This document shows, in pieces, positions 15,647-42,184 of a stretch of DNA of 64,000 nt (position 1 is the stretch's first letter; every line of letters begins with the position of its first letter). The DNA is from Candidatus Bathyarchaeia archaeon. GTDB taxonomy: Bacteria; Patescibacteriota; Microgenomatia; PFEM01; JAFGMK01. The stretch spans positions 177,067 through 241,066 of the forward strand of contig DATKWK010000035.1 in assembly GCA_035529595.1 (NCBI GenBank), in the 5' to 3' direction. The notes beneath the pieces were generated by a model, which saw only the letters and a list, made by a program, of their open reading frames with translations, had not been told where the DNA came from and did not search any database. The translations under genes and the position numbers were made by a program.

Positions 15647-15647
15647 T

Positions 15648-26502: not shown

Positions 26503-26508
26503 ATTTTG

Positions 26509-27282
26509 TTAAGCTTTGTTTTGCATTTCCCAAAGACGGGCATATATGATAAAAGTATTGCCGACTTCAAAAAGCGCATTAATCCAGCCTTCTGTCCCGT
26601 CACGCCAAGCTTGCTGAAGGACGATTCTCTTCCAAAACTTGGTTACCATCATGCGCAAAATCCGCCACCAGGCAACTCGTGGATGGTTTGATGCGAACAA
26701 CAATTCTGCTTCAATTACAGTCCAGTCAATTGTTTTTTCCATCATTGATGACAAGTCTCGGTGTGTCAGATGAATAAGCGGGTTTTTAAGTTTGCCGATT
26801 TTACCACTGATAACCGGCTGTTCATGAAGCTCGCCCACCCAACGGATTAAGTCTTGGCGATGGAAAAGCCGGATAACGTCATCGGGCCAAGCTCCACCGT
26901 AATGCATTTCTTTGCCCAGGTAAAAGTTCCGCCTGGAAATCGCATAAGCGGAAATTTTATTCTTAACAACTTTTTGAATCTCCTTTTTTAACAAAGGCGT
27001 CACCCGTTCATCGGCATCAAGATATAAGATCCAATTTTCTCCTGCCCTCTTCAATGCCTGATTCCGCCACTTGGAAAAATTGTAACCTCTAAATGGAACC
27101 TGAAATACTTTTACGCCCGTATCGCGAGCAACTTGAGCGGTTTTATCACTCGAGCCGGTATCAAAAACAATTATCTCTTCTGCCCAATTAACCGACTTTA
27201 AGGCATCAGCGATCATTGCCTCTTCATTTCTGACAATTATAATGACACTAAGTCCAATTTTATTATTCATCTTCTTTGACAA
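26509..27282 (-). CDS. glycosyltransferase family 2 (paralog family A)
   Basis: 257 aa; LSVIIIVRNEEAMIADALKSVNWAEEIIVFDTGSSDKTAQVARDTGVKVFQVP...WILYLDADERV; collinear with 13130..13939. Confidence 0.7.
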   Translation of the reverse strand: MSKKMNNKIGLSVIIIVRNEEAMIADALKSVNWAEEIIVFDTGSSDKTAQVARDTGVKVFQVPFRGYNFSKWRNQALKRAGENWILYLDADERVTPLLKKEIQKVVKNKISAYAISRRNFYLGKEMHYGGAWPDDVIRLFHRQDLIRWVGELHEQPVISGKIGKLKNPLIHLTHRDLSSMMEKTIDWTVIEAELLFASNHPRVAWWRILRMMVTKFWKRIVLQQAWRDGTEGWINALFEVGNTFIIYARLWEMQNKA

Positions 27283-27309
27283 CGCTGGATGATTGTCGAT
27301 TTAACCCAA

Positions 27310-28224
27310 TTATAATCTTTCCGGCCAGCTGCCCCGACCGAATTTCCTGAGACAGAAATCTATGACCGCTTTTCTTTGCCAAGGACGCCCGAAAATTAAA
27401 AATTTCAATGATTGTTTAAATAGAGCGAATTTTGCCCGCCAAGGGGCGAAAGACCAGCCAAAAAGCAATTGGTTACGAACCATAAAATAATCCTGTAAAA
27501 CTCCCCCGATCTTACTTGAGGCAGCAACTTGATGCCAAACACGAGATGCCGGAACATAAAAAAGATCAAAACCGGCCCGAATTGCCCGCTGACAAAAATC
27601 GGCATCCTCATAATAGAGAAAGTAACGCTCGTCCAACAAACCAATCTGCTTAAAAACGTTACTCTTAATTAAAGTGGCACAAAAACTGGCAAATTCGATT
27701 TTTTTAATCCGATCGTATTGACCATGGTCAACTTCATCTACGCCGCGATGAGGAGTAGCGATATTAGCCCAATCAACTTCACCGCCGGCAAACCAAATAA
27801 CTTTACCACGATCTTTATTCCGGTAACGATCATGATGAAATTCGTAACCGGGTGCAAAATATATCTTTGGTGAAAATATTCCTCCCTGGCGATATTTTTC
27901 TGCTGCTTCAATTAAAGCAACTACAAAACCAGAATCTACCAAAGTATCATTATTAAGAAGTATCACGTAGTCGGCTTCAGCCTTGAGAGCATAACGAATA
28001 CCGATATTATTACCGGCTGAAAAACCCAAATTCTCACCGGTCATCATAAATTTTACCTGGCTAAATTCTGCCCTCAGCGATTCCATATTTTCCTGGGAAT
28101 TATTAACGACAACGATTGTTTCAATCAGATTATTAGCAGACTCAATTCTTTGCAGAGACTCAAGACATTTACCGGTTAAATCCAGTCCTTGATAATGGAT
28201 AATGATGATAAATATCTTTTTCAC
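27310..28224 (-). CDS. glycosyltransferase family 2 (rhamnosyltransferase-like)
   Basis: 304 aa; KIFIIIIHYQGLDLTGKCLESL...IVVVNNSQEN...ILLNNDTLV...YYEDADFCQRA. ATGA overlap with the upstream YfhO gene stop. Confidence 0.7.
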   Translation of the reverse strand: MKKIFIIIIHYQGLDLTGKCLESLQRIESANNLIETIVVVNNSQENMESLRAEFSQVKFMMTGENLGFSAGNNIGIRYALKAEADYVILLNNDTLVDSGFVVALIEAAEKYRQGGIFSPKIYFAPGYEFHHDRYRNKDRGKVIWFAGGEVDWANIATPHRGVDEVDHGQYDRIKKIEFASFCATLIKSNVFKQIGLLDERYFLYYEDADFCQRAIRAGFDLFYVPASRVWHQVAASSKIGGVLQDYFMVRNQLLFGWSFAPWRAKFALFKQSLKFLIFGRPWQRKAVIDFCLRKFGRGSWPERL

Positions 28225-30566
28225 AAATATTTATTTTTTTTAAAGACGAGTAATCTCTTCAGAACAAGCAAACCGATGGTCAAAAAACTGGTTATAGTGA
28301 TCATCAATCCCCGATAATAAGATTGTGGCCGAAAAACAAATTTAACTTGATGACTCCCCGGTAAAATATCAACGGCACGGAAAATATTTTCGTATTTTTT
28401 GATACTTTGAGGCCGACCGTCAACCAAGACTTCCCAGCCGGGATAAAATACATCAGTTAAAACTAATTGCGACGGTTTGTCCGCTTTGGTTGCTAAATCG
28501 ATCTCATTTGGATAATAATTGACAATTTCAACAGCAGTCCTTTCACCGTTATCATCTAAAAAAGCCCGTGGGAGAACGGTCCGGTTCTCATATATTTTAA
28601 CATTCTTAATTTCCTTAACCAACCTATATTGAGGAAAATTGCCGATTTCGTTTATGGTTGAGGTAAAATTGGCATCGACAAGAAAATATTTAACCCCGAG
28701 CAAATCTAACCGAAAATCAGTCAATGGCAAAGAATCTACTTCATTGACATTGATTCTGCCGGTATCCTGGCTCATAAAATGAGCGTAATCCGACAAGACG
28801 AGATCACCGTAACCCATCGGAGTCGCCAATTGATGAAACAAGCCCCAATTCGGCGGCAAACTTCTCAAACGACTCTTGAGTTCGGTAAAATTCACCTGCT
28901 CGTCCGGGGTAAAGACCGAAGGGGCAAAGGGCGGACGCAAAGAAATATTTTCCCAGTAAACATTAAGACCGGTAAACGGCCAATAACCGGTGCTGCTGAT
29001 AAAACGATGGTAACCGTCCCCGACAAATTCGGCCACCGGTTGCTGATCATTGAGAACCGATGCTTTTATTGAAAAATAATTATTGCGGTTAAAGAGAAAC
29101 AGTTGATAAATAATAAGTAGAAAAATAATTACTCGAAAAAGCTTACTTCCTATTATTTTTCGCTGATACAGATATAGGCTGAGAAGAAAGCCGGTCAAAA
29201 TCGAGGAAGTAAGCAAGAGATGACTAACCAAAGCCTCAAAAATTGTCCGGTCAACATTAAAATTGTGAAACAGGCTTGTTTGAAGAGGTACTTTTCTGTA
29301 CCACCAATATACCTTTTCCAGCCAAGGGTAAAAAAGAACAAAAAGATTTTCCCTGATTAATAAAATTAAACCGAGAATTACGGTTGATATAAAACAGCCA
29401 ATAAGAAAACCATAAACCAATCGCCGAAGCTTATTTTTTTTGATTAAAGAATCAAAAGCAAGCCAACTGAAAGCGACTAAGACAGAAGCGGAAAAGTTAG
29501 TCACCAGTAAAATTTGCGTTGGCGACCGAAAGAGATTAAAGCCGGGGATAATTCTGCAAATCAGGCCATAAAGAGGCGTATACTTTCCCATTGCCAAAAC
29601 AATGCTAGTCAAAAATACTATGCTGAAAAAAATCACCGGAAAGTTTTTTTTAATTTTTGGTAAAGCCGTAAAAAGAATAAAAAGAGGAACTATACCGAAA
29701 TAGCCGGTATTATCAGCTACTAAACGATAAGCCGGTCCCCACGAGAAGCCTTTAACGGCCGCCCCGAAAAAAGAGGGAAAGAAAAATCGTATTAATAACA
29801 AAGGGTGCATCGACCAGGCAGTCAAATAGGAAAAATCTCCCGCTGGCCTGGTGGAACGATTGACTAACTCCATAAAGGGTAATAGTACAAAGGCCCCAAG
29901 ACCAAGAAAAAAACCTAAAAAAACTAAACCCCGTTTAACTTTTGCCGTAAAAGAAAGCCGGGGATAAAAAAAGAAATATAAAAACAAAAGGGTTAAAGTG
30001 TAAAAAGTCGGCTGTGGATGGCCGGAAACCAGCTGAAGTGAAGCGAATACAGCCAGAATGATCGGCCAAAACCCAGTTGCTTTGGATAAGACTTGCTCCC
30101 CCGCCAAAAAAATTAAAGGCAAGAAATAAGCACTGGATAATAATGAAATATTGTTAATAAAAGTCATCATTGTTGCTGAGAAGGCAAAAACAACTGCCCC
30201 TAAAGTAGCTGCAAATTCACCAACTTGCCATTTCTTCAGCAGTAAATAAGTAAAAACAGCCGCCAGAAAAACTTCCGTAATTGCCAGGCTTGTAAGAGCC
30301 CAGAGTGGGGGCAGAAAGAAAAAGAAAAAGTTTAACGGATTAAAAATCCCCAGACCAAAATCGCCAATCAGCGGAACCCCGGCAAAAAGATACGGGTTCC
30401 AGAGAGGCAGCCGGCCTTCTTTTAGTTGTCGGGTAAAAAAAGTAACAACAGGTAAGAAGAGGGAAAGGTTGTCGCCGAAATAAAAAACCTCACCTAAAAA
30501 AATATTTCTGAAAAAAAAGATTGTTACCAGTGTCAGTAAAAGAAATATTGGTTTAAACTTTCTCAT
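28221..30566 (-). CDS. YfhO-family polytopic membrane protein (GT-C fold glycosyltransferase)
   Basis: 781 aa; EVFYFGDNLSLFLPVVTFFTRQLKEGRLPLWNPYLFAGVPLIGDFGLGIFNPLNFFFF and C-terminal VFYPGWEVLVDGRPQSIKKYENIFRAVDILPGSHQVKFVFRPQSYY match the YfhO family. Start overlaps the stop of the upstream CsbB/DPM-like GT2 (ATGA). Confidence 0.65.
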   Translation of the reverse strand: MRKFKPIFLLLTLVTIFFFRNIFLGEVFYFGDNLSLFLPVVTFFTRQLKEGRLPLWNPYLFAGVPLIGDFGLGIFNPLNFFFFFLPPLWALTSLAITEVFLAAVFTYLLLKKWQVGEFAATLGAVVFAFSATMMTFINNISLLSSAYFLPLIFLAGEQVLSKATGFWPIILAVFASLQLVSGHPQPTFYTLTLLFLYFFFYPRLSFTAKVKRGLVFLGFFLGLGAFVLLPFMELVNRSTRPAGDFSYLTAWSMHPLLLIRFFFPSFFGAAVKGFSWGPAYRLVADNTGYFGIVPLFILFTALPKIKKNFPVIFFSIVFLTSIVLAMGKYTPLYGLICRIIPGFNLFRSPTQILLVTNFSASVLVAFSWLAFDSLIKKNKLRRLVYGFLIGCFISTVILGLILLIRENLFVLFYPWLEKVYWWYRKVPLQTSLFHNFNVDRTIFEALVSHLLLTSSILTGFLLSLYLYQRKIIGSKLFRVIIFLLIIYQLFLFNRNNYFSIKASVLNDQQPVAEFVGDGYHRFISSTGYWPFTGLNVYWENISLRPPFAPSVFTPDEQVNFTELKSRLRSLPPNWGLFHQLATPMGYGDLVLSDYAHFMSQDTGRINVNEVDSLPLTDFRLDLLGVKYFLVDANFTSTINEIGNFPQYRLVKEIKNVKIYENRTVLPRAFLDDNGERTAVEIVNYYPNEIDLATKADKPSQLVLTDVFYPGWEVLVDGRPQSIKKYENIFRAVDILPGSHQVKFVFRPQSYYRGLMITITSFLTIGLLVLKRLLVFKKNKYL

Positions 30567-31279
30567 GGAGAAAAATATTTCAGTTTCAAAAGAAGTCCGG
30601 CTGCTCTGACACCATCATACCAACTAATCTTTTTCCCTTTATCAAATGAACGTGCTTGATAATTAATCGGAACTTCGTAAATTGGTATTTTCTTTTTAAG
30701 GATCCGGACAGTGATCTCTGGCTCAAAATCAAACCGGAGCGATTGCCAATTAATACTCTGGATTAATTCTCGCCTGAATAATTTATAGGCGGTCTCCATA
30801 TCGGTTAGCCGGCTTCCAAATAGAACATTAGTTAAGGCGGTCAGGAACAGGTTTCCCAGTCGAAAAAAAGTGCTCATCTCCCGAACTTGCCCGGCAAACC
30901 TTGAACCGTAAACTACTTGAGCACCTTTCCTGTCGGCTACTTCAAGAAGCGTTATTATTTGCTTCGGCTCGTATTCCAGGTCGGCATCCTGAACGATGAC
31001 ATATTTACCCTGTGCAACTGCAACACCGGTTTTTATAGCTGCTCCCTTGCCTTTATTCCGGAGATGGCTGAAAACCCGGAACGGGAACTGAAACGAGAAT
31101 TGTTTCAAAACCCGGCCGGTCCCGTCAGTCGAACCGTCGTTGACAACGATAATCTCTTTTTCCAGCGGAAGACCGGCGACTGCTTCGATAACTTTCTTAA
31201 TCGTCCCCTCTTCGTTAAATACCGGAATTATAACTGAGAGTTTTAATGCCGATGAATTTTTTTTGTTAGCTGCAGCCAT
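30563..31279 (-). CDS. GT2 polyprenyl-phosphate glycosyltransferase (CsbB/GtrB/Dpm1-like)
   Basis: 238 aa; LSVIIPVFNEEGTIKKVIEAVAGLPLEKEIIVVNDGSTDGTGRVLKQ...VQDADLEYEP...GSRF...ETAYKLF pattern of Dpm1/CsbB-type synthases. Confidence 0.7.
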   Translation of the reverse strand: MAAANKKNSSALKLSVIIPVFNEEGTIKKVIEAVAGLPLEKEIIVVNDGSTDGTGRVLKQFSFQFPFRVFSHLRNKGKGAAIKTGVAVAQGKYVIVQDADLEYEPKQIITLLEVADRKGAQVVYGSRFAGQVREMSTFFRLGNLFLTALTNVLFGSRLTDMETAYKLFRRELIQSINWQSLRFDFEPEITVRILKKKIPIYEVPINYQARSFDKGKKISWYDGVRAAGLLLKLKYFSP

Positions 31280-32157
31280 GTTTTTTTGAAAATATTTTTT
31301 TCCGCTTCAATTCGACCCGAGAGAAACCAAAAACGGATTTCTTTGATTTTATCCTTAATCTCCTGATCCAACGCCGTCAGCAAAGAAGCAGTTTCCATCT
31401 CCGACGCCTTTTCTTTTTCCCAAATCTTGGCGTAAATTACCATTTCTTTAAAAGCCTGGAAAAGTGCTAAAATTAAACCTAGAACTCCATCTTGGAAGCC
31501 TTTTTCGGCAAAAAATCTTCTTAAAAATTCGTCAATCGGTTTTTTAATCAAATCGCTTAAGACGAACCGGTAACCGGCTTCTTGCAACTGGTTGGCTTCC
31601 AAGCTGGTGTAAAGATCAAATTTCAGCGGGCTTAAAAAATGGGAAACAGTCTCGTAATTATGATGGATTAAAGGATTTTTTAGAAAGCCGACTTGACCCT
31701 TAACCTGAACTTGCTCGTGAACTTTCTCTTGATAACGTGCCTGGTGGGTTTTAAATAAATGAAGTTGATAGTCAGGGTACCAGCCGCTATGCTTTACCCA
31801 ACGGCCGAAAATTAAGTTTTTTCGCGGAATTTGGAATCCGTCAAGATCTGTTTCCCTGATCGCCTCTTTGATTTCTTTAGCCAAGGCGGAGGAAACCTCC
31901 TCATCGGCATCAACCATTAAAACCCAATTACTTGCCACTTGCTTGAGGGCAAAATTACGCTGGGTAGCAAAATCATCAAGCGTTCTTCGCAGTATTCGAG
32001 CACCGGATTTTTCAGCAATTTTAACCGTCCCATCCGTTGAGTTATCATCAACCAGCAAAATCTTATCCGCAAATCGGAGGGATTTCAAACACCGGGGCAG
32101 GTTTTTTTCTTCGTTTTTGGTTATCACCACTGCCGTCAGATTCGCTATCTCAGTCAT
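31243..32157 (-). CDS. glycosyltransferase family 2 (paralog family A)
   Basis: 304 aa; LTAVVITKNEEKNLPRCLKSLRFADKILLVDDNSTDGTVKIAEKSGARIL...WVLMVDADEEV; third copy of this paralog family. Confidence 0.7.
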   Translation of the reverse strand: MTEIANLTAVVITKNEEKNLPRCLKSLRFADKILLVDDNSTDGTVKIAEKSGARILRRTLDDFATQRNFALKQVASNWVLMVDADEEVSSALAKEIKEAIRETDLDGFQIPRKNLIFGRWVKHSGWYPDYQLHLFKTHQARYQEKVHEQVQVKGQVGFLKNPLIHHNYETVSHFLSPLKFDLYTSLEANQLQEAGYRFVLSDLIKKPIDEFLRRFFAEKGFQDGVLGLILALFQAFKEMVIYAKIWEKEKASEMETASLLTALDQEIKDKIKEIRFWFLSGRIEAEKNIFKKTWLQLTKKIHRH

Positions 32158-32189
32158 TTTTACATTTTAACATTTATTTTCCCTTTGGG

Positions 32190-34151
32190 TTAAATTATTT
32201 TATATACTTTAACTCTGTCATTTGAATAGAACAATTCTAACTTATTTCCTAGATCAGCCTGCCAAGACTGGTCATCAACCAGGTAAATATATTTAATATG
32301 GCTTTCTTTCAAAAATTCATTAGCCAAAGAAGCGTCTGTGGTCATAAAAAAATTTTTCACCTTTGCCAATCTTTCTTCAAGCCCATAGTCCTGAATCAGG
32401 GCAGCAGTTTGATCCTCAAGATAAACCCGCCGGTTGGTGAAAAAAGAAACATAGGCAGCATTATAGTAAGATAACGGTACCGGAGCTGAAAAATGACTTT
32501 CTGACCCTGAGGCATAGGGGTAGGCCAAAATGACTTCACTCCTGCCGGAATTGTTTTCGACAAAACTCAAAGCGTCTTTTTCGCTTCGATCCAAAAGAGC
32601 AGTCGGAGTTTTTCCCCAGTGCCAACTGATTGTTTTCAGGCTGCCGGGAAGGGAAAAAAGAAGCAAAACTGAAACCATCACCGCTTTTAAGCTAACCGGT
32701 CTAATTTTTTTGATCAACCCATCAACGGTAAATGCTGTAAAAAATCCTGTTATAAAAATGGCGTAGTAGAAAAATTGAATCGTATTCCAGGGAAGATATT
32801 CTTGAATTAAAAATAGCGGCGGCAGCAAACCGGCCGCTAGAAGAATAACCAGCAGCAGGTCGATGATTTTTGGCCGAATCAATTTTTTAAATACTTCGAT
32901 TAAACCTAAACTCCTGACGCCCAAATTACCAATAATAAAGCAGGCCAAAGCAACTCCGTCGATAAGTAAGACGCCAAGCCGATTGCGGTAAAAAACATAA
33001 ACTTGACGCCTGAGTTCCCAGGAGACCCAATTCATCCGATCGCCTGCCTGGATCATAACCCTGACAAACCAAAAAGGCTGCCATTTCACCAAAGCGGTCG
33101 AGGTTTTATTCGAAGGAAGATAGACCACCAGTGCGGTAACCAGAGAAAATAAAGCGACTTTTAATAGATTAGTTTGCTTACTACTAACTTGCTGCCAAAG
33201 ACCAATAGCTAAAAGGGCCACCAAAACAATCAAACCACCGTAAACCTTAAATTCGATGATTGAGCCAAAAACCAGGGCTAAAATAGTTAAGCGTTTCAGA
33301 TTCCATTTCTTTTCCGCTTCAAATGACCAAAGAAGAAACAACCCCAGTACCAGAATGAGCAGGGAAAGATAAAAAGGCGGATTTTGCAGGCTGGTCGCCG
33401 GCTGCATTGCCCAAAAAGCAGTCTCCCAATTATCAGATCCGATACCGAAAAAAGGCAATAAAAAACCAAAACTTGAAGCAAAAGCGTTAAAGAAAACCGC
33501 CCAGCAGCCGACGGATTTCCTGCCCGACCAACGGCTGGCAAATATGTAAACCAGACTATTAAGTAAAAAGGCCAAAAATATAGGCAGATAACGGAAATAA
33601 AGATTAAGGATCGGAATCTTAGTCAGGCGGTAGGTTTCGGCCGCAAAAAGATCAAAAAAATAATGATAGTTTTTTAAAGTTTCTCCGGCAAAACCGGGAT
33701 TCTGACCGGGAAAATCCTGCGCCAGTTCCTGAATCAGAGTTGCGTGCCAAAGGCCATCATGACCGTGCACCCCCCAGAAGGCAATTCCTCCCTGATAATT
33801 GGTGCCGCTTTTAATCATCACCAAGCTTTGAAAAATGGAGCCGCCAAGAATAAGCAGAATAATTAGCCAATCAGTACTTGCGGGTTTTCTAAGAATCGGT
33901 TGCCATTTCCGCCGGAGGAAACAGAAACCGGCAAAAAATAAAAGCGGCCAAAGAAGAAAATTCAAATGGAGCCACCTCAAAACGAATGAAGCAAGAGTCA
34001 AAATAACTATACCCAAACTAAGAGCAACAACTGGCCTCTCAAATTCAGTCAATTTTACTTTTAGCCAACTTAAAACCAGTTCTCCCGGAGCAAATAGCAA
34101 AAAAAAGAAAAAGGAAAGGAATTTTACAATCGCCAAAAATTGACTTATCAT
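32190..34151 (-). CDS. large polytopic membrane protein of unknown family (putative GT-C-like), GHDGLWH...NYHYF motif
   Basis: 653 aa, more than 12 predicted TM helices; conserved block AFWGVHGHDGLWHATLIQELAQDFPGQNPGFAGETLKNYHYFFDLFAAE shared with the divergently encoded paralog 34248..36284. Confidence 0.45.
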   Translation of the reverse strand: MISQFLAIVKFLSFFFFLLFAPGELVLSWLKVKLTEFERPVVALSLGIVILTLASFVLRWLHLNFLLWPLLFFAGFCFLRRKWQPILRKPASTDWLIILLILGGSIFQSLVMIKSGTNYQGGIAFWGVHGHDGLWHATLIQELAQDFPGQNPGFAGETLKNYHYFFDLFAAETYRLTKIPILNLYFRYLPIFLAFLLNSLVYIFASRWSGRKSVGCWAVFFNAFASSFGFLLPFFGIGSDNWETAFWAMQPATSLQNPPFYLSLLILVLGLFLLWSFEAEKKWNLKRLTILALVFGSIIEFKVYGGLIVLVALLAIGLWQQVSSKQTNLLKVALFSLVTALVVYLPSNKTSTALVKWQPFWFVRVMIQAGDRMNWVSWELRRQVYVFYRNRLGVLLIDGVALACFIIGNLGVRSLGLIEVFKKLIRPKIIDLLLVILLAAGLLPPLFLIQEYLPWNTIQFFYYAIFITGFFTAFTVDGLIKKIRPVSLKAVMVSVLLLFSLPGSLKTISWHWGKTPTALLDRSEKDALSFVENNSGRSEVILAYPYASGSESHFSAPVPLSYYNAAYVSFFTNRRVYLEDQTAALIQDYGLEERLAKVKNFFMTTDASLANEFLKESHIKYIYLVDDQSWQADLGNKLELFYSNDRVKVYKII

Positions 34152-34207
34152 TTACCTTAAGCTTGAAAAACCGTTAATACCGATTCTACCACAATCCAGT
34201 TCCGCTT

Positions 34208-34238
34208 TTTGCATTCCGAAGAAAATTCAGGGTATAAT
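34208..34238 (+). promoter_or_regulatory. sigma70-like promoter (-35 TTTGCA, 19-nt spacer, -10 TATAAT) driving the plus-strand paralog, probably leaderless or short-leader
   Basis: TTTGCA at 34208-34213, TATAAT at 34233-34238, ATG at 34248. Located in the 57-nt divergent intergenic region 34152..34208. Confidence 0.4.
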
Positions 34239-34247
34239 TTGGCCATC

Positions 34248-36284
34248 ATGCAAAGCTCTTTTTCCATCCTTGTCAAAACGCTGCTTTATCTGCTGGTTTT
34301 TTTATTGCTTTCCGTTTTTACCTTTTACATCCCGGGCTGCCTGCTGATTGAGAAAATCAAGAAAAAATTACGCAGCGACGAAAAAATTACTCTGTCTTAC
34401 AGTATCGGTATCGTGCTTTTTTTGATCCTGGCCTGTGTCGCCGGTTTAGCAAAACTTAGATTTCTTTCACCCTTAATTCTGGTTCTGATAAACCTTTACG
34501 CTTTGAAAAAGTCAGGCCGGCGGTTTCTTTCTCCCTTCAGGCAAATCAGCAAAGAAAAATTTCTGATTCTTTTACTGCTTTTTTGCACCCTGGTGGAAGG
34601 TTTTATCAATTTTCCCAGCGGTTTCACCTACCCGAGCGGCCATCTTTATTGGAGTTCACAGGGGCATGACGGCTTATGGCACGTCGCGGTGATCGAGGCG
34701 ATAAAAAAACAATTTCCCCCGAATAATCCTCTTTATTCAGGCGGAAAACTTTACAATTATCACTATTTTACCGATGTAATTATGGCCGAGTTTGGACGGA
34801 TCTTTCCTTTTTTCTCGACCCTTGACCTGTATTTTCGGTTTTTTTCCTTCCTGATTTCGTTTTTAATTGGACTTTCGGCTTATTCCCTCCTAGTAACCTG
34901 GAAAAAAAGCAGGTCAATCGGCCTCATCGGCATCTTTTTTACCTACCTGGTAGGCAGTTTTGGCTATCTGGTGCTTCTGATTCAAAAAAGAGGCTTTTTT
35001 GGTGGTGAAACGATTTTTTGGGCCGCCCAAAGCAATACGATCATCGGTAATCCACCTCATGCTTTTTGTTATTTTTTACTGCCGGCTTTTTTCTTGGTTT
35101 TTCATTACTTTCTGGAAAAGAAAAGCGATTTTTTCTCTTTGCTGGCTTGTTTCCTGCTTGGTGGTTTCTTGGTCGGCTTTAAAGTCTCAGCTGCCTTTAT
35201 CCTCCTGACCGGTTTGGGCTTAACTGCAGTCTGGTTTTTTCTGACCCGAAAAAACAAAAAAATCATACTGCTGACACTTTTACTGGGCTTCTCAAACCTG
35301 CTTATTTTTAAACTAATCACTAAAAAAGGCGAGCTGTTTTTATTATTTTTACCCTGGTGGTTTATCCGGACAATGATCGTTGTCCCCGACCGGGTTAACT
35401 GGATCGATCTGGAACTAAGACGCCAGTTCTATCTGGACAGAGGCGGCTGGCGTTCGGTTCTGCGCATCATCCAATTTGAAACCACCGCTTTTCTAATTTA
35501 TCTTTTCGGAAATTTGGGAATGCGTTTTATCGGCTTCTTGGAAATAACCAGGGCCTTTTTAAAGAAAAGTATTTTCAAAAACCCCCTGGAAAGCAGCTTG
35601 TTTTTGACGATGTTAACCGGTTTTATCATGCCGATCTTTTTCGTTCAGAGAGGAGTCGCCTATAATTTAATTCAATTCATGCAATATTTCCTTCTTTTTT
35701 TCGGATTTTGGGCGGCTGCCAGTTTTCATTCAGTCCTATCTCTCTTCAAAAACAAGGCCATCAAGGTAGTCCTTTGGGGAATTCTAATTTCTCTTTCTGT
35801 ACCGACCGTGATCGGCAACCTGAAAGAATTCTACGGGAAAAACGCTTTGGCCAGAGTTTCCAACCAGGAAATTGAAGCTCTGAAATATATGCAGAAAAAC
35901 AGCACTGATCAGGATATTATTCTTACCTATCCCTTCAATCCCTACAGCCACGGGCAGTATCCACATCAACCCTGGCCGATTTACGCTTGGGAATCAACCG
36001 CTTACGTCAGCGCCTATACCGGCCGGCAGACCTATTGCACGAATGACGGCCAACTGCGGATATTGGCCATCGATCCGGAACCGAAACTGGAAATGATGAA
36101 AGCTTTTTTCAGCGAGAAAACAACTCTGGAGACCAAACAAGACTTTTTACAAAAAGAAAAAATCACTTATTTGTACCTAAGAAACGAAGAACTGACAGCT
36201 GATCTTGAAAAAACGTTGTCCCGGTTAAATCTTAAGCAAGTTTTTAAAAACGACGACGCCGTCATTTTTCACTTCGGGAGCTGA
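34248..36284 (+). CDS. large polytopic membrane protein of unknown family (paralog of 32190..34151)
   Basis: ORF track begins at a TTG at 34209. The ATG at 34248 (MQSSFSILVKTLLYLLVF...) lies 10 nt downstream of a TATAAT box. Shared block HLYWSSQGHDGLWHVAVIEAIKKQFPPNNPLYSGGKLYNYHYFTDVIMAE. 691/678 aa multi-TM. Confidence 0.45.
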   Translation: MQSSFSILVKTLLYLLVFLLLSVFTFYIPGCLLIEKIKKKLRSDEKITLSYSIGIVLFLILACVAGLAKLRFLSPLILVLINLYALKKSGRRFLSPFRQISKEKFLILLLLFCTLVEGFINFPSGFTYPSGHLYWSSQGHDGLWHVAVIEAIKKQFPPNNPLYSGGKLYNYHYFTDVIMAEFGRIFPFFSTLDLYFRFFSFLISFLIGLSAYSLLVTWKKSRSIGLIGIFFTYLVGSFGYLVLLIQKRGFFGGETIFWAAQSNTIIGNPPHAFCYFLLPAFFLVFHYFLEKKSDFFSLLACFLLGGFLVGFKVSAAFILLTGLGLTAVWFFLTRKNKKIILLTLLLGFSNLLIFKLITKKGELFLLFLPWWFIRTMIVVPDRVNWIDLELRRQFYLDRGGWRSVLRIIQFETTAFLIYLFGNLGMRFIGFLEITRAFLKKSIFKNPLESSLFLTMLTGFIMPIFFVQRGVAYNLIQFMQYFLLFFGFWAAASFHSVLSLFKNKAIKVVLWGILISLSVPTVIGNLKEFYGKNALARVSNQEIEALKYMQKNSTDQDIILTYPFNPYSHGQYPHQPWPIYAWESTAYVSAYTGRQTYCTNDGQLRILAIDPEPKLEMMKAFFSEKTTLETKQDFLQKEKITYLYLRNEELTADLEKTLSRLNLKQVFKNDDAVIFHFGS

Positions 36285-37755
36285 ATGAGTCTTTTAACAA
36301 CAAAACTCCCCTAAGTAAATTTTCCCGGGCGATCAAAAAAAGAGTCAGTGAATAAACCAAACCGCCACTGGCAATCAAGAAAAAGATAATCGGCCAACCG
36401 ATAAAACTCAGCCTATCGGTAACTACCCAAAGATAAGCACCCATCAGCAGACTTGAAAGCAGGGGTGGCCAGACAGTTTTTAAGACATTAATCTTAAAGT
36501 CTTTATAAACCAGATAAAAAACTATCAGTGAAGAAACCGGTATTAAACCTAAAGCCCAAGCAGCGCCAATAAAGCCGAATTTCACGGCCAACAGAGGAGT
36601 TAACACCCAAGTCAAAACAGTCCAGAGAATCATTAATTTAAATGTGATTTTGATCTTTCCGACCGCATTATAAACATTTGTTAAAGGAGTAGTGATCGCT
36701 CCCCAGGCAGCGTTAAAACAAAAAAGGCACAGGGGCAACAAAGCCGTTTCCCACTTCTGGTACTTGGGAATAATTCTCACCAGCGGGCCAGCCATTAAAG
36801 CCAGTCCCGTTAAAAGAGGAAAAGCCAAAACCGCAACGGAAAAAAGAGAAAACTCAAGCGCTTTTTTCAGACGGGTTTGATCTTGCTGCAGGCGGGAAAA
36901 GGCGGGAAAGGTTACTTTCATTACCGGATCCATCGCAAACCGCAGCGGCATTTGGGCCCATTTTTGCGCCCAACCTAAGATTCCCACACCGCTGACGCCG
37001 ATAATTCTCCACAAAAAAACATTCATCAAGCGATCTTTGATCACAGCCAGCAGCGTATTTGCTTGAAAAGGCAGGCCGAATTTTAGAAGCCGTTTGAGGC
37101 TTCGCAACTGGAAGGAAAAACCTATCGGCCAAGGAGAAATAAGATAAATCATCACCACGCCTGCCAAACCCCGGCATAAGACTGCCCAAGCATAACTGAT
37201 GACCCCGAATCCCCGCCAGGCTAAAAAAACAGACAGACCGTAAAAGATTAGCGTTTCTACCACTTCAATTAAAACTAAAAGATCAAAACGCAGCCTTCGC
37301 TCAAGCATTACCGAAGGAATAGTTTTCAAAGAAGCCAGAAAAAAGCCAGCCAAAAAGGCGCGCAGCAACCAGAGGCCGGCCGGACCGATTTGATAGAAAC
37401 GGGCAATCACGGGAGTCAAAATAAAAAAAGTGCCCACTGAAAGCAAGACAATTATTTCCTGGATGGTAAAAGTGCTTCTAATTTCTCTCTCGTCCGGTTT
37501 TTCTTTCTTCTGAATCAGAGCGGCTGCCAGGCCAATATCGGAAAAATATCCCAAAATTGCCACCAACTCAGAGACAGCAAAAAAAAGGCCGATTTCAGCC
37601 TGATTTAAAAAAACTGAGAGCAAAAAGAAGCCGAAGAAAGAAACGATCTGAAGTAAAAAAGTTCGGCCGGTTAAAGCCGCCATTCCCTTAACAGCCCGTT
37701 TTTTAGTCGCCTGAAAGCCGATTTCTTCTTGAATATGTTGGCGCGAATCAACCAT
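36262..37755 (-). CDS. MOP-superfamily polysaccharide flippase (Wzx-like)
   Basis: 497 aa, about 12-14 TM helices; N-terminal ...AVKGMAALTGRTFLLQIVSFFGFFLLSVFLNQAEIGLFFAVSELVAILGYFSDIGLAAALIQKKE typical of Wzx/O-antigen flippases. 23-nt convergent overlap with the plus-strand gene. Confidence 0.55.
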   Translation of the reverse strand: MVDSRQHIQEEIGFQATKKRAVKGMAALTGRTFLLQIVSFFGFFLLSVFLNQAEIGLFFAVSELVAILGYFSDIGLAAALIQKKEKPDEREIRSTFTIQEIIVLLSVGTFFILTPVIARFYQIGPAGLWLLRAFLAGFFLASLKTIPSVMLERRLRFDLLVLIEVVETLIFYGLSVFLAWRGFGVISYAWAVLCRGLAGVVMIYLISPWPIGFSFQLRSLKRLLKFGLPFQANTLLAVIKDRLMNVFLWRIIGVSGVGILGWAQKWAQMPLRFAMDPVMKVTFPAFSRLQQDQTRLKKALEFSLFSVAVLAFPLLTGLALMAGPLVRIIPKYQKWETALLPLCLFCFNAAWGAITTPLTNVYNAVGKIKITFKLMILWTVLTWVLTPLLAVKFGFIGAAWALGLIPVSSLIVFYLVYKDFKINVLKTVWPPLLSSLLMGAYLWVVTDRLSFIGWPIIFFLIASGGLVYSLTLFLIARENLLRGVLLLKDSFSSRSEK

Positions 37756-37771
37756 AAACCAATTAAAAAAA

Positions 37772-39472
37772 CTAAGGGCGCGAATTAGGTTTTTTCATGA
37801 TAATCAACAAACAAAAGATCACCCAAGAAACCAGAGACAGCCAGTTACCGAATGTTCGAATGGGCGTGTTTAAGAGCCGCGCCTCAACCGCGTAGCTACC
37901 TTTGGCAACTTCAAACGTCGGTAAACCCAAAAAGTTATTCGTATCGGTTGCCGATATCCTGCCGTCAACGTAAACGGTCCAGTTAGGAAAATAATAGACC
38001 GGTAATCTTACTTTAGCCCGATCACTGTTAATCGCAAGTTTAAATTTTAACCAGTTTGTTCCTTGCCGGTAATCATCAACCTCTCCCCCGCCTTCTGAGA
38101 ACCAAGCCATTTTCGGAGCCGGCTCACCCGGCGGATAGCTGGCTGATTTCGGTAAATAATCAAAGATCCCGGAAGTCACCTGCTCTCTCCACTCTACCGA
38201 ATCAGAAAACTTTTGTTCATCGGTCAGACGATCATACCAAACCTCCGGTTTAAAATAGCCAATGTTGAGATAAATCACGCTCGCAACCAACAAAGAGACT
38301 ATTAATAAAACCACCGGCTGCTTTTTTAACCAACGGTTAAGAATATACACCAGGCCGCCTATTAGTAAAGAGAAGGAAAAAATCGTCAGCGTCAAAAACC
38401 GCCACGGGAATTGAAGATATTCCAGGGGCTTTAATACCTTCCAAAAAAAAGTCGAGCGCGAATGAGTAAAAAATGCTGACCCTAAACCGACCACAAAAAT
38501 AAAAAAAACTTCCCAAATTTTTTTCTTACTTCTTCTTAAAAAAAAGCCAGTCAAGAGAGCCACCAGAAAGGACAGTCCCCAATGCAAAATCCCGATCTGG
38601 AAACTGATCTTTTCATCCGTTCCATAAACTGACGCCCCCCATCCCCACGAACGGTCCCAGAAAAGCTGTTTGAGCGAGACGAAATGCGCCAGATAATTAA
38701 AATAGCCCATTAGCATTGTTTCCACATGAACTAATTTTTTCTCAAAAATAACCGGCAGGGAGAAAAAAGCAGCCAAACCAAAAGCCAAAATTGAAGGCCC
38801 GATAAATTGAAAAATCTTACCGATTCGTTTATTCAAGTAAAGGCATAACAATAACCAAACGAAAGCTACCGGCGTAAAAATCATCACCATTACATTGTGG
38901 GTCAGCAACAATAAAGCATAAAAAAGAGAGAAATATAAAAGATATTTTTTCTGCCGGCTTTTCGCATACTGATAAATTGCCCAAAAAATGCCGGGGAACC
39001 AGGCCAGTGACCAAAATTCGTTCATCGCTCCCCGGGCATAAATGTCCAAAGAATGATAGGGGGCATAAGTATAAAAAAGACTTGACAAAAAACCGCCCCA
39101 AATTCCCCAAAGAACCTCGCCTAAAAGAAACATGGTAAGAGCAGCCACCAGAAAGCCCATAACGAAAGTAATTTTAACGCTATCAAGAATCGAAAAACCA
39201 AGCAAATGAATAACTTCCGCCAAATAATACGGAAACGGGGGATAATAATTAAATAAAGGGTAGCCGTAACCGTAACCGGCATCCGGCACCCAGCGGCAAG
39301 GAATCTGGCCATCGCGAAAGCATTTATCCATTTCCAGAACCCGAAAAGCCTGCATATCATCATGCATGGAGAAATAGCCGGGCTTTAAGAGCGTTTGCCA
39401 AGCAAAGAAGGTAAGTAGCAAGCTGGCAATTGGTACAAACAGCTTTATTATTTTACTTTTTCCTTGTCTCAT
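37772..39472 (-). CDS. polytopic membrane protein, YfhO-like/GT-C-like (tentative)
   Basis: 566 aa; N-terminal GYFSMHDDMQAFRVLEMDKCFRDGQIPCRWVPDAGYGYGYPLFNYYPPFPYY parallels the YfhO ..G(R/K)LPLW.P..G.P.....FYP block; more than 10 TM helices plus C-terminal soluble domain. Confidence 0.4.
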   Translation of the reverse strand: MRQGKSKIIKLFVPIASLLLTFFAWQTLLKPGYFSMHDDMQAFRVLEMDKCFRDGQIPCRWVPDAGYGYGYPLFNYYPPFPYYLAEVIHLLGFSILDSVKITFVMGFLVAALTMFLLGEVLWGIWGGFLSSLFYTYAPYHSLDIYARGAMNEFWSLAWFPGIFWAIYQYAKSRQKKYLLYFSLFYALLLLTHNVMVMIFTPVAFVWLLLCLYLNKRIGKIFQFIGPSILAFGLAAFFSLPVIFEKKLVHVETMLMGYFNYLAHFVSLKQLFWDRSWGWGASVYGTDEKISFQIGILHWGLSFLVALLTGFFLRRSKKKIWEVFFIFVVGLGSAFFTHSRSTFFWKVLKPLEYLQFPWRFLTLTIFSFSLLIGGLVYILNRWLKKQPVVLLIVSLLVASVIYLNIGYFKPEVWYDRLTDEQKFSDSVEWREQVTSGIFDYLPKSASYPPGEPAPKMAWFSEGGGEVDDYRQGTNWLKFKLAINSDRAKVRLPVYYFPNWTVYVDGRISATDTNNFLGLPTFEVAKGSYAVEARLLNTPIRTFGNWLSLVSWVIFCLLIIMKKPNSRP

Positions 39473-40596
39473 TTTTGCCTGCCTTTTAAAGACACCTGCC
39501 TGGCAACACCTGCTAAGCTAATATAGAGAGGCGGTAGAATCGGTAAAAGATATCTCGGGTAAGGCACGCCAAAATTATACATCAACAAAAACGAAAATAT
39601 CCAGGTAGTCATGAGCAGAAGCCGATAATCCTGTCTTTTTATGGCCAGAAAACCTGCCAGCAATGAGGCAAAAAAAGATAAGGGCCAAAAAATTTGCCAT
39701 TGGTTAACAAAAACGGTCTTAAAACCTTCCCACCAAGTAAGCCATCTGCCCGAGATTAGAATATTGAATATTTGTCCTTTAGGATAACCGGTTACCTGGA
39801 CGCGGGCAAAATGGCGGATCCAGAAATGCAGATATTTAAAATCGCCAAGGGTTTTACCGGTTAAGAAGTATCGGAGATAGACAGCTAAATAAGTTAAAAA
39901 GAAAAAGGGGAGGAAAAAGAAAAAAGAAAGATATTTCGGTTCTTTCTTTAAAATGGAAATCAGCAGTACCGAAACTGAAATACCGGCCAAAAGCCCGATA
40001 CCGGCCAAATAGACTTTGGTAGTGCTGGCTAAAGCCAAAAAGAACAACGCCGGCAAAAAAAATAGTGTCTTTTTTTCCGCTTGTAATAGACAATAAAAAG
40101 CCAGGCTGATAAACAGGGTAAAAGGCAAATCCAGCATCGACGTCGTTAAATTTTCCCGAAAAAGAGAATCGAAACTCAAAAGTGAAACGGCAATAGCTGA
40201 CCATAAATAATCATCAGTAATTTTTAGGGCAATCAGGAAAATAATAACCAGAATACTTAGACCCAAGATCGGCGACAGAACAAGCGGACTGTTAAAAAGC
40301 AGGGAGGAAAAACCGAGGAGATACTTTCCGGTTGGGGGTTGTTCGGCATTAATTTCGGTCGGATCCATACCCTGAATCTGCCGCCAACCGGCATAAGCAT
40401 AAAGTTCGGCATCGCCCATCTGTTCTTCCGCCGCAAAACCCTTGGCCCACTGGGACTTTTCGTAGCGCTGCTGCCAATAAAACGGGTCAAAGCGTTCGCT
40501 AAAGATTTCTCTGTCTCTTAGTACATAGGCAACAAGGCTAAAAAAACTGCCAAGCAATAAAAACCCGGTAATCAGTTTCTTTTTAGCTGGATTCAT
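39469..40596 (-). CDS. short PMT_2/GT39-like membrane glycosyltransferase (GT-C)
   Basis: 375 aa; loop motif MGDAELYAYAGWRQIQGMDPTEINAEQPPTGKYLLGFS resembles the Pmt/ArnT DE..Y...(gap)..hPPL.K.l loop. Confidence 0.45.
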   Translation of the reverse strand: MNPAKKKLITGFLLLGSFFSLVAYVLRDREIFSERFDPFYWQQRYEKSQWAKGFAAEEQMGDAELYAYAGWRQIQGMDPTEINAEQPPTGKYLLGFSSLLFNSPLVLSPILGLSILVIIFLIALKITDDYLWSAIAVSLLSFDSLFRENLTTSMLDLPFTLFISLAFYCLLQAEKKTLFFLPALFFLALASTTKVYLAGIGLLAGISVSVLLISILKKEPKYLSFFFFLPFFFLTYLAVYLRYFLTGKTLGDFKYLHFWIRHFARVQVTGYPKGQIFNILISGRWLTWWEGFKTVFVNQWQIFWPLSFFASLLAGFLAIKRQDYRLLLMTTWIFSFLLMYNFGVPYPRYLLPILPPLYISLAGVARQVSLKGRQK

Positions 40597-42184
40597 TTTT
40601 TACTTGAAACAGCAGTAAGAAATCCTGGCCGTTAGGACCGCTAGCCTTAGGATAGCGGGCAATCGGTATTAACCGTGCATCCTGTCCGACCAGAAAACGC
40701 GACTGGTTAACCAGCAAATAAACTTCGTTGTCAACCGTCGCATTAAGCAAAGAAACCGGTACTTCCCTAACCGGCTGGCCGACGCCGACGACGATTACCC
40801 GCCTGTTTTGGTCAAAATACATTTGGAAACCGTCGGGCAAGGTGCCAAAATAGCCCTCCGTGCCAACTAATATATTTCGATTCGTTTCGGCCACCCGCCG
40901 GTTTATGAAACTAACCGCCTCCTTGATTCCATAACCGGATGTCCATTCCTCAAGATAGCCGGAACGCATCTTCCGCGGTAACGGCGCTTGTGCCGGATCC
41001 ACCAGCAACCACCGGACGTAAGAAAGCGTAAAGAATAACAATAAAGTAACGATGACTCCTTGAAGCCAACCTTCTGGCAATCTCTTATTGCATCTGCCAA
41101 GATACTTTGACAAGCAGTCAATACCAACAGCTGCTAAAATAACTGCCGGCCAAACTGCAAACAGCAGATAACGCGGTGCAAATACCCGGGCAACGGCCGA
41201 CTGGGTAAAAATTGGAACGATGAAAAGACTTACCAAAAATAATATCTGGCGGCGGTCTGTTTTCATCAACCAACGCATAAAGACACCCAAAAAAATCAGT
41301 AAAATCACCGGCGGCGTGAAAAGATTCGGCAACCAGGTTATCAAATCATTTAAGTGCGGCTTTAACGGGTCCAACGGATGCCTAAACACCTCCCGGATCG
41401 GAAAAATGTAATCCTGATTACGAGTCGCAATCATGCCAAAATTCGGCCCCAAGCGCAATAGGTTATAAATTACGAAGGCAAAAAAATAAACGACCAGCCA
41501 AAAACCGCCTAGTTTAATTAATTGAAGCAAATAGGGTTTTTTTAACCTATTATTTTTGTGCAAAAATAAGGCCGATGGCAATATCAAAAAAGCGACGAAT
41601 ATCGCGGGCGATTTAGTCAGAAAGGCAGCGCCCAAAATAATACCGGTAATCATGGCTAAATCCAATCGCAAGTAATGGGCCAGGAGAACGGCTAAAAGAT
41701 AAGTCCAAACCGCCAACATACTAAGAAGGCTATCAACTAAAGCCAGCCGGTCAAAGAAAACGAAGTAAGGGATTACCGTGTATAAAAAGGCGGACAAGAA
41801 AGAAATCTTTTTGTCCCGAAAGAGAAAATAACTTAAAAGCGTAATACCGATGAAGGATCCAAAACCGGCAAGAACCGATATTAATCTGCCGACCAAAAGC
41901 GGATCCTCGGTAAGCGGCAACAGAAACATCAACAGCCACATAAAAAAAGGTTGCTTGCCATCAGAAAGAGGCAAAAAGCGCAGCGTCGGTTCCGCCCTCA
42001 TCACCTGCGCCCAGCGGACGTAGATTGCCTCATCGGCAAAAACCGGCAGCAAAGTCAAACTCATCAATCGAAGAAGAAAAAAGAGCAAAACCAAAGCTGT
42101 CCAGCCTAAGATCAATTTCCGGTCGATTTTTGAGATTTGCCTTTTAAAATTTGCCATTTCAAACGTATTTTCCGCGCCAGTCAT
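40583..42184 (-). CDS. ArnT/GT83-like undecaprenyl-phosphate-sugar:acceptor glycosyltransferase (GT-C)
   Basis: 533 aa; LPVFADEAIYVRWAQVMRAEP corresponds to the ArnT LWQPDEARYAEISREM catalytic loop; multi-TM plus C-terminal periplasmic domain. Confidence 0.6.
   Translation of the reverse strand: MTGAENTFEMANFKRQISKIDRKLILGWTALVLLFFLLRLMSLTLLPVFADEAIYVRWAQVMRAEPTLRFLPLSDGKQPFFMWLLMFLLPLTEDPLLVGRLISVLAGFGSFIGITLLSYFLFRDKKISFLSAFLYTVIPYFVFFDRLALVDSLLSMLAVWTYLLAVLLAHYLRLDLAMITGIILGAAFLTKSPAIFVAFLILPSALFLHKNNRLKKPYLLQLIKLGGFWLVVYFFAFVIYNLLRLGPNFGMIATRNQDYIFPIREVFRHPLDPLKPHLNDLITWLPNLFTPPVILLIFLGVFMRWLMKTDRRQILFLVSLFIVPIFTQSAVARVFAPRYLLFAVWPAVILAAVGIDCLSKYLGRCNKRLPEGWLQGVIVTLLLFFTLSYVRWLLVDPAQAPLPRKMRSGYLEEWTSGYGIKEAVSFINRRVAETNRNILVGTEGYFGTLPDGFQMYFDQNRRVIVVGVGQPVREVPVSLLNATVDNEVYLLVNQSRFLVGQDARLIPIARYPKASGPNGQDFLLLFQVKNESS

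Follow-up and report, generated by a model that had tools for sequence, protein, structure and literature searches.

In the GacI/J/K/L system of Streptococcus pyogenes a Wzx-family flippase serves a GT-C-type glycosyltransferase (GT) that adds a single sugar, and in the WpsA/B/G/I/J system of Lactococcus lactis the Wzx protein WpsG serves both WpsI, a GT-C polymerase, and WpsJ, a GT-C transferase of an oligosaccharide or polymer (PMC9574508). Within the GT-C(A) class, GT66 is the one family listed with a lipid-diphosphate-linked (lipid-PP) oligosaccharide as donor, the others being listed with a lipid-P-monosaccharide (PMC10920833, Table 1). Here we analysed two divergently transcribed open reading frames (ORFs), ORF A and ORF B, in a 64,000-nucleotide (nt) stretch of contig DATKWK010000035.1, the whole of which is referred to as the window. 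A and B are ancient duplicates, one A-type and one B-type member of an undescribed family with a predicted GT-C(A) fold, and the pairing of this family with a gene for a Wzx-type flippase is near-obligate. What is new is a family-level variant of GT-C(A) glycosyltransferases, the kind of enzyme itself being known. Four features distinguish it: the catalytic-loop motif, three optional N-terminal helices, a C-terminal domain that appears to resemble that of oligosaccharyltransferases (OSTs) and lacks WWDYG, and the pairing with Wzx.

Bacteria of the candidate phyla radiation (CPR, or Patescibacteria) are mostly uncultivated and dependent on contact with other cells. A strikingly large part of their very small genomes serves surface glycosylation, by a machinery that is almost all unassigned. 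The family offers a concrete, testable candidate for the step that consumes a flipped lipid-linked glycan in Microgenomates. It would constitute a new GT family of the CAZy type, set apart by its catalytic motif, and its alignment could seed a Pfam or NCBIfam model that would remove thousands of 'hypothetical protein' labels.

Fold and conserved residues of the two proteins

A and B align end to end by BLASTP (29% identity, E 2e-83) and are regarded as true paralogs because of this full-length alignment; the divergent paralog pair reported in a first-pass annotation of this DNA was thus recovered with both ORFs in place (Table 1). Scans of both proteins against Pfam-A and NCBIfam at E up to 1 yielded no family match, and the family was not assignable by hidden Markov model (HMM) searches, which also gave no confident match to a transporter family outside the glycosyltransferases. 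A match to DUF986 (E 0.57) in these scans was discarded as meaningless. When 65 members were scanned against Pfam at E up to 0.1, DUF6541 was the only model matched (2 members, best E 3e-4). The HMMs of PMT, PMT_2, YfhO and PTPS_related, as well as those of Wzy_C, O-antigen ligase and EpsG, matched neither A or B nor any of the 65 members scanned, and the same was true of the STT3 HMM (PF02516) at E up to 1 for A and B and up to 0.1 for the 65 members. Searches of PDB sequences with phmmer and with a profile of the 65 sequences returned nothing useful. Using hhalign, the family was compared with alignments from the fetched loci: the probability was 87.7% for PTPS_related-like proteins (E 3.4e-6, A residues 91-343) and 75.8% for PMT_2-like proteins, against 0.3% for a Wzx control. 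In the alignment, the H-D and N-Y of the family match the H-D and N-Y of PTPS_related proteins. These profile comparisons suggest a weak but specific relationship to recognised GT-C families.

An AlphaFold2 model of A, built from the 65-sequence alignment, reached a predicted local distance difference test score (pLDDT) of 95.1 and a predicted template-modelling score (pTM) of 0.94. When it was compared with the PDB using Foldseek, GT-C(A) glycosyltransferases were the sole high-probability matches, 25 structures of this class being found at a probability of at least 0.99 while the rest, apart from short local matches to 3vu0, stayed below 0.1. Matches included yeast and human STT3 (E 1.5e-9 to 1e-7, template-modelling score (TM-score) about 0.5), the C-mannosyltransferase DPY19 (E 4e-9), PglB (E 1.8e-6), AftA (E 2.5e-5, with 0.53 the best TM-score on the query) and ArnT (E 2.6e-4), together with archaeal AglB and AftD. 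Transporter structures appeared at E >0.1 and probability <0.1, and WaaL, RodA and FtsW were absent from the 50 matches listed, which reach down to E about 1.3. On the basis of this model, A and B can be confidently assigned to the glycosyltransferases of the GT-C(A) fold.

The model contains about 14 transmembrane (TM) helices and a crude hydropathy scan 12-14, in agreement with the 12 or more predicted previously. In ORF A, they are laid out as three extra N-terminal helices and an 11-TM core, followed by a C-terminal globular domain. D132 lies at the start of the first helix of the first extracytoplasmic loop (EL1), which follows core TM1. Short loops rich in Lys and Arg (80-94, 208-213 and 278-297) alternate with loops that bear conserved polar residues, a positive-inside arrangement. 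Forms of the family with 560 amino acids (aa) start at core TM1, the helix just before the motif loop, and theirs is the canonical GT-C layout, with the N-terminus inside, then TM1, and EL1 outside. EL1 is placed outside because in the long forms the three extra helices are preceded by a signal peptide and a deacetylase-like soluble domain; as the soluble domain and EL1 share the outer side, the conserved Asp, Glu, His, Lys and Arg residues would therefore face outside. We infer for the family this topology, in which the conserved residues are exposed outwards as in GT-C enzymes.

Residue conservation was counted in 361 non-identical members aligned to the family HMM (values given as A-type / B-type where two are separated by a slash, numbering of ORF A), and that of the motif also in the 65-sequence alignment. 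The motif block holds D132 (99 / 100%), W135 (92-98%), H136 (97 / 98%), P152 (93-97%), N161 (93 / 98%), Y162 (100%), H163 (99 / 100%) and D167 (91 / 95%). Beyond it, conservation extends to E243 (93 / 100%), W247 (98 / 100%), N257 (99 / 100%), K302 (100%), P359 and W361 (at least 97%), D371 (97 / 66%), R372 (91 / 75%, plus 18% Lys in B-type proteins), N409 (99 / 100%), R413 (94 / 85%, plus 14% Lys in B-type proteins), and Q450, N456 and Q459 (at least 97%). In A, the motif-block residues D132, H136, N161, Y162, H163 and D167 are located in EL1 of the GT-C core; their counterparts in B are D141, H145, N170, Y171, H172 and D176, and all the conserved catalytic-candidate residues are present in B according to its alignment with A and the family counts. 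The GHDGLWH...NYHYF motif noted in the first-pass annotation is real and conserved far beyond chance in the 361 homologs, D132, H136, Y162, H163 and K302 being found in 97-100% of them, with the correction that the first His of GHDG, H131, is not invariant (77-87% His, otherwise Tyr or Arg). The residue before NP, given there as N or P, is Q in A and N in B. As read from the aligned sequences, the family motif is G-[HY]-D-G-x-W-H ... N-Y-H-x-x-x-D, with the core D-G-x-W-H ... N-Y-H-x-x-x-D.

The model of A also returned local Foldseek matches to 3vu0, the C-terminal globular domain of AglB-S2 (179-188 columns, E 0.04-0.06, probability 1.00), with a TM-score on the target of 0.52-0.57 and without sequence support. 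The match table gives no query coordinates, and the assignment of these matches to the C-terminal domain (residues 512-653) is a probable one. In this region the family shows a helix 'E-EAL-FL' and a strand 'vILTYPY', and then 'YVSAFxxRxVyxED', a layout that presumably recalls the STT3 segment around SWWDYGY and that we take as a lead only. WWD itself, and with it the WWDYG motif, was found in none of the 361 members. No DxD, ExD or DxE occurs in A before residue 524 or in B before residue 387, and the single conserved carboxylates D132, D167 and E243 stand in place of DxD/ExD. Neither the apparently STT3-like C-terminal domain nor the near-obligate linkage to Wzx described below had been noticed in the first-pass annotation, whose proposal of a poorly described family of lipid-linked-sugar transferases or polymerases is supported by the lack of Pfam, NCBIfam and PDB sequence matches, the GT-C(A) fold, the hhalign links and the conserved motif.

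The family and its linkage to Wzx-type flippase genes

ORFs were called in 82 related loci and classed by HMMs and phmmer. In 63 of the 70 loci with enough flank, a family member lay at most 150 nt from a Wzx-like ORF, and 68 of the 71 Wzx-like ORFs adjoined a family member. In 65 of these 71 cases the Wzx gene was directly upstream of the family member on the same strand, the coding regions commonly overlapping, and in 38 of the 71 a PTPS_related or PMT_2 gene stood ahead of the Wzx gene, giving the order GT-C, Wzx, family member. None of 28 YfhO and none of 184 GT2 genes adjoined the Wzx gene. Contigs annotated with Pfam repeated the pattern of Wzx plus family member, and several GT2 and GT4 genes accompany the pair both in the window and in its relatives. 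A-type members, whether short, mid or long, are usually encoded by the gene right after Wzx, and B-type members (660-690 aa) next to the A-type gene or a few kb from it, two or three family copies being present in 34 of the 82 loci. L006, L008 and L009 repeat the order seen in the window (Wzx forward, B reverse, A forward). L016 shares the divergent B/A pair, but no Wzx-like ORF was found in its contig, and in L001 Wzx, B and A are all co-directional.

Regarding the extent of the family, a word-indexed search recovered 121 relatives, none of them named and none with a reproducible Pfam match, whose named sources were Pacebacteria, Daviesbacteria, Berkelbacteria, Shapirobacteria and the Microgenomates group. 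When 1.84 billion cluster representatives were searched exhaustively with the family profile, 4,069 of them scored at E up to 1e-3 and 1,249 at E up to 1e-30, which puts the size of the family at no fewer than 4,069 clusters at the 50% identity level. Among GTDB species genomes 305 relatives were detected, and the 77 loci that were kept came from Woese-, Davies-, Blackburn- and Shapirobacteria and from 'Patescibacteria group' metagenome-assembled genomes (MAGs). Starting from P0120, the short member that diverges most, a homology walk reached Roizman- and Shapirobacteria only, and no annotated relative. The family is apparently restricted to CPR bacteria of the Microgenomates type, and we found no description of it in the literature on GT-C enzymes, oligosaccharyltransferases or flippases in Patescibacteria/CPR.

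The protein identical to ORF A is labelled 'Candidatus Bathyarchaeia archaeon' in NCBI. The window encodes a TrmD-family tRNA m1G methyltransferase (49886..50608), TrmD being a bacterial enzyme; since, in addition, all homologs of the family are from CPR/Microgenomates, an error of binning or taxonomy probably lies behind the archaeal label. Many related MAGs recorded as 'uncultured Gammaproteobacteria', among them the 810-kb chromosome OZ246419.1, also look mislabelled.

Family members fall into three length classes, of about 560 aa (beginning at profile position about 90 and thus devoid of the three leading helices), about 650-690 aa (the class of A and B) and about 1,000-1,160 aa (extended by 450-500 aa at the N-terminus). 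In the long A-type forms, a signal peptide and a DUF3863/CE4-like glycoside hydrolase/deacetylase domain are fused to the GT-C enzyme, and a B-type gene usually follows directly. This N-terminal domain matched 3lm3, a 'putative glycoside hydrolase/deacetylase', by profile (E 0.0017) and by fold (E 1e-8), and further fold matches were the CE4 deacetylases of peptidoglycan and polysaccharides HP0310, PdaC, PgdA and Bc1960; the match to DUF3863 was weak and was obtained only when the long-form N-terminal domains were scanned alone, and the model of the full-length long form was of moderate quality (pLDDT 74.6). As an extracytoplasmic carbohydrate-processing domain is fused to the enzyme, the substrate or product would therefore be a glycan with acetylated sugars. 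The precomputed labels PF12979 and PF26314 were not reproduced by Pfam hmmscan of the long fusions and of the divergent members P0118 and P0119, which gave no match. The divergent protein P0119 (941 aa) has a second polytopic N-terminal membrane domain of about 370 aa with an 'HDFFNY' element, and may be a fusion of two GT-C-like modules.

Gene starts, promoters and glycan island in the window

The features of the locus are collected in Table 1. Translation of B could begin at TTG 34209, giving 691 aa, or at ATG 34248; the latter was taken as the start because of the N-terminal alignment with A and the conserved spacing of the TATAAT box. With this start, the intergenic region measures 96 nt, and the 57 nt previously reported, which fit TTG 34209 alone, resulted from combining the two start codons. 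The promoter that had been proposed for B, TTTGCA-19-TATAAT, is present, with TATAAT 9 nt before the ATG. A perfect TATAAT precedes the B-type ATG by 7-9 nt in all five genomes with the divergent pair (the window, L006, L008, L009 and L016), the intergenic sequence around it being otherwise diverged. This spacing supports the earlier proposal of a leaderless or very short-leader transcript, and the B mRNA is probably leaderless or nearly so, as judged from the five sequences. A generic promoter scan, which missed the gene B site because of its 19-nt spacer, called a single site elsewhere, no more than expected by chance. In L001, L006, L008, L009 and L016 an extended -10-like TGnTAnAAT element precedes the A-type ATG by about 10-15 nt (distances read by eye).

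Table 1. Features of the divergent gene pair and its surroundings (window positions unless a locus is named)
Feature	Position	Strand	Description and basis
GT2 genes directly downstream of A (two)	30563..32157	minus	Pfam
GT2, 238 aa	30563..31279	minus	second gene after A; NCBIfam AglJ 2e-30, under the curated cut-off
GT2, 304 aa	31243..32157	minus	first gene after A
ORF A	32190..34151	minus	653 aa; A-type member of an unnamed family with predicted GT-C(A) fold; ORF listing
C-terminal extracytoplasmic alpha/beta domain of A	32193..32618	minus	residues 512-653; secondary structure of the model
Motif block of A	33651..33779	minus	residues 125-167; FWGVHGHDGLWH...QNP...NYHYFFD; translation
Shine-Dalgarno-like element of gene A	34152..34158	minus	AAGGTAA; sequence
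Extended -10-like element of gene A	34183..34191	minus	TGGTAGAAT; 31 nt upstream of the ATG (computed)
-35-like element of gene B	34208..34213	plus	TTTGCA; 19-nt spacer to TATAAT
-10 box of gene B	34233..34238	plus	TATAAT; 9 nt upstream of ATG 34248
ORF B	34248..36284	plus	678 aa from ATG 34248; B-type paralog of ORF A
Motif block of B	34647..34775	plus	residues 134-176; YWSSQGHDGLWH...NNP...NYHYFTD; translation
Wzx-type MOP flippase gene	36262..37755	minus	Pfam Polysacc_synt_3 9.9e-48; convergent with B
PTPS_related GT-C protein	37772..39472	minus	Pfam PF10131; upstream of the Wzx gene
Long A-type fusion	L005:10001-13414		about 1,130 aa; equivalents in L010, L012-L014, L017, L020 and others

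The pair is embedded in a glycan island that occupies window positions 1..48150. In agreement with the GT-C-rich island described in the first-pass annotation, it holds about 14 GT-C-type genes (nine PMT/PMT_2-like, two YfhO, one PTPS_related, A and B), about 17 GT2 and two GT4 genes, genes for nucleotide-sugar enzymes and two Wzx-like genes. The presence of a third copy of the family in the window was considered and rejected. The 3' ends of B and of the neighbouring Wzx-type gene share 23 nt (36262..36284); no terminator-like site was detected in a scan of 33900..34500, the convergent junction lying outside that scan. The Wzx-type protein scored under the curated cut-offs of the NCBIfam models for MOP flippase, O-glycosylation flippase and TuaB, and would be the functional partner of a family member.

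Downstream of A and in the same direction follow two GT2 genes, YfhO, two GT2 genes, a GT4 gene and a second YfhO. The second of these GT2 genes, which overlaps the YfhO gene just downstream, encodes a protein that resembles polyprenyl-phosphate hexose synthases of the AglJ, dolichyl-phosphate (Dol-P) hexose transferase or ArnC type, in each case below the cut-off. Each PMT_2 gene of the island has its own small GT2 neighbour, without Wzx. There seemed to be no room for a small GacJ-like ORF among the window genes since these abut, and no DUF2304 search was run. A tRNA scan of the window found none.

Elsewhere in the island, the second, more divergent Wzx-like gene (8113..9402; Polysacc_synt / Polysacc_synt_3 / MatE) is followed by a 416-aa ORF without Pfam or NCBIfam match (9412..10662), a candidate Wzy-type polymerase, and then by a GT4 gene. 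Adjoining this Wzx-like gene, the first in the window, are genes of the purine/uridine phosphorylase family and for a type-I phosphoribosyltransferase (6775..8116); they are reminiscent of ribofuranose pathways that depend on phosphoribosyl pyrophosphate (PMC11127046) and may represent simple nucleotide salvage. A B12-binding radical S-adenosylmethionine enzyme (3371..4870), encoded between island GT2 genes, could carry out an unusual sugar modification such as C-methylation. By phmmer (E 1e-11 to 1e-43), three ORFs without Pfam match in 15648..18027 and 21548..23122 are PMT_2-like proteins, diverged paralogs of those encoded next to them, and the 282-aa ORF at 17179..18027 looks like a fragment or split gene. 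A 382-aa protein (45165..46313) showed a weak match below the cut-off to the 'AZOBR_p60025 family cell surface glycopolymer formation protein' (NCBIfam, E 6.7e-12).

Possible functions and comparison with known systems

The reading that we favour, with moderate confidence, is that A and B are extracytoplasmic glycosyltransferases that use a Wzx-flipped, polyprenyl-phosphate-linked glycan for en-bloc transfer or polymerisation, with putative donor and acceptor. The cytoplasmic GT2 and GT4 enzymes of the island would build the glycan on polyprenyl phosphate, the adjacent Wzx-type flippase would carry the lipid-linked glycan to the outer leaflet, and a family member would take it there as donor. 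D132 would be the catalytic or acceptor-activating carboxylate, like the EL1 Asp of other GT-C(A) enzymes. The phosphate(s) would be bound by K302, R372 and R413, and a metal ion may be coordinated by the histidines and the remaining carboxylates. The glycan would then be moved en bloc to, or polymerised on, an extracytoplasmic acceptor such as a wall glycopolymer or a surface protein. By analogy with L. lactis WpsI/WpsJ, A and B might divide the labour as polymerase and transferase, or they might alternatively form a heterodimer. More tentatively, we suggest that the family could be an STT3-fold 'ligase' of Microgenomates that, having lost the sequon-binding WWDYG, transfers a Wzx-flipped, polyprenyl-phosphate-linked oligosaccharide en bloc to an acceptor other than a sequon, for example on peptidoglycan, a surface protein or a secondary wall polymer, with A and B as a transferase/polymerase pair or heterodimer and with the fused CE4-like deacetylase processing the same glycan in many lineages. 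If en-bloc transfer were true, OST-like chemistry would be extended to non-sequon acceptors and a new GT-C(A) family with lipid-linked-oligosaccharide donors would exist besides GT66.

Several points weigh against the favoured reading, and some of them fit a single-sugar GT-C enzyme of a three- or four-component system (GacL/GtrII/ArnT-like), in which a polyprenyl-P-monosaccharide made by a GT2 is flipped by the Wzx-like protein and its one sugar is then placed by A or B on a glycopolymer or protein that has already been exported; we regard this as possible, though on balance doubtful. The donor could equally be a polyprenyl-monophosphate monosaccharide. In GacI/J/K/L, Wzx-family flippases serve C55-P-GlcNAc (PMC9574508), and the AglJ / Dol-P-hexose-transferase / ArnC-like GT2 is encoded two genes downstream of A. 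The structural matches include ArnT and also AftA, which reaches the best TM-score on the query (0.53), and the Foldseek TM-scores, of about 0.45-0.53, do not separate OST-like from AftA/ArnT-like enzymes. No initiating phosphoglycosyl transferase of the Bac_transf or MraY/WecA type was seen among the window ORFs scanned with Pfam or in the Pfam-annotated related loci. In addition, the conserved residues are assumed to line a single pocket, D371 is present in only 66% of B-type proteins, and background adjacency rates for other gene classes are biased because the loci were centred on family members. As GT66 alone uses a lipid-PP-oligosaccharide and every other characterised GT-C(A) family a lipid-P-monosaccharide (PMC10920833, Table 1), addition of a single sugar remains a serious rival. 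The AglJ-like GT2 is, however, more simply paired with the YfhO gene that it overlaps, as in CsbB/YfhO systems, and the island PMT_2 genes have their own GT2 without Wzx, whereas Wzx is tied specifically to the family. The highest-ranking structural matches are OSTs, which the C-terminal domain also seems to resemble, and the presence of several GT2 and GT4 genes in the same operons suggests an oligosaccharide rather than a single sugar. Since no initiating phosphoglycosyl transferase was seen and an AglJ/ArnC-like GT2 is encoded, a plausible donor is an oligosaccharide linked through a monophosphate, of the kind used by the Wps or haloarchaeal Agl pathways.

Under the same OST-like matches one could take A and B for bona fide N-oligosaccharyltransferases of the STT3/AglB/PglB type, acting on Asn in N-x-S/T sequons: STT3, AglB and PglB are the best Foldseek matches, the C-terminal domain of AglB-S2 is also matched, and the Wzx-like flippase, the AglJ-like GT2 and the further GTs resemble archaeal agl clusters. 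This is nevertheless very improbable given that no Pfam STT3 match appeared even at E 1 and no PDB sequence was matched, that the core has 11 TM helices rather than 13, and that fusion to a deacetylase-like domain points to glycan and not peptide chemistry. With WWD(Y/W)G in none of the 361 members, no DxD in EL1 of A or B and no STT3 HMM match, true STT3 membership was rejected. We consider it highly improbable that the family belongs with the Wzy-type polymerases or WaaL-type ligases of the GT-C(B)/shape-elongation class, or with EpsG-like polymerases (clan GT-C3), despite its position next to Wzx, the classical place for Wzy, and despite the long conserved near-N-terminal loop with conserved Asp and His that clan GT-C3 polymerases also have (PMC10920833). 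Pfam gave no match to Wzy_C, O-antigen ligase or EpsG, and the Wzy/WaaL class was rejected for this reason and for want of a fold match (WaaL, RodA, FtsW) among the 50 Foldseek matches listed. Wzy proteins have roughly 400-450 aa, unlike the family proteins with their 560-690 aa and apparently OST-like C-terminal domain. Finally, the polytopic nature of the proteins, and nothing more, speaks for a transporter or structural membrane protein without enzyme activity; this reading, the most improbable of all, was rejected by the Foldseek probabilities (<0.1, at E >0.1) of transporter structures, and the invariant outer-face Asp, His and Lys fit a catalytic site.

Compared with STT3, AglB and PglB (CAZy GT66), which gave its best whole-length structural matches (E 1e-9 to 1e-6), the family shares a membrane core of the GT-C(A) kind, whose first external loop carries a conserved Asp, and a gene setting near a flippase and several cytoplasmic GTs; its C-terminal extracytoplasmic alpha/beta domain may also resemble the C-terminal core of AglB-S2. 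It differs from them in having no similarity at the sequence level, neither WWDYG (0/361) nor DxD, an 11-TM core preceded by three extra N-terminal helices with a predicted N-out topology, and the motif [HY]DGxWH...NYHxxxD, some members being in addition fused to a deacetylase-like domain. The fold matches to AftA (2.5e-5), ArnT (2.6e-4) and DPY19 (4e-9), GT-C(A) enzymes whose donors are polyprenyl-P-monosaccharides, are likewise not accompanied by sequence similarity, and the soluble domains of these proteins differ from that of the family. To our knowledge, AftA, ArnT and DPY19 are not typically encoded next to Wzx-type flippases. PTPS_related (PF10131) and PMT_2 (PF13231) proteins share a remote profile similarity with the family (87.7% and 75.8%, respectively) and the same operons, but differ from it in the C-terminal domain and in the conserved residues, and it is the family alone that follows the Wzx gene.

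In its gene setting, the locus is comparable to GacI/J/K/L and Wps of Gram-positive cocci, and it is by this setting and by description, not by sequence, that the family is set beside GacL, WpsI and WpsJ. As in those systems, a Wzx-family flippase gene stands next to one or two GT-C enzymes, the cluster includes GT2 genes, one of them for a candidate polyprenyl-phosphate-sugar synthase, and further cytoplasmic GT genes, and the family would act on the outer face of a single-membrane cell. In contrast to them, the hosts are CPR bacteria, and no gene for a small GacJ-like activator was seen alongside the pair.

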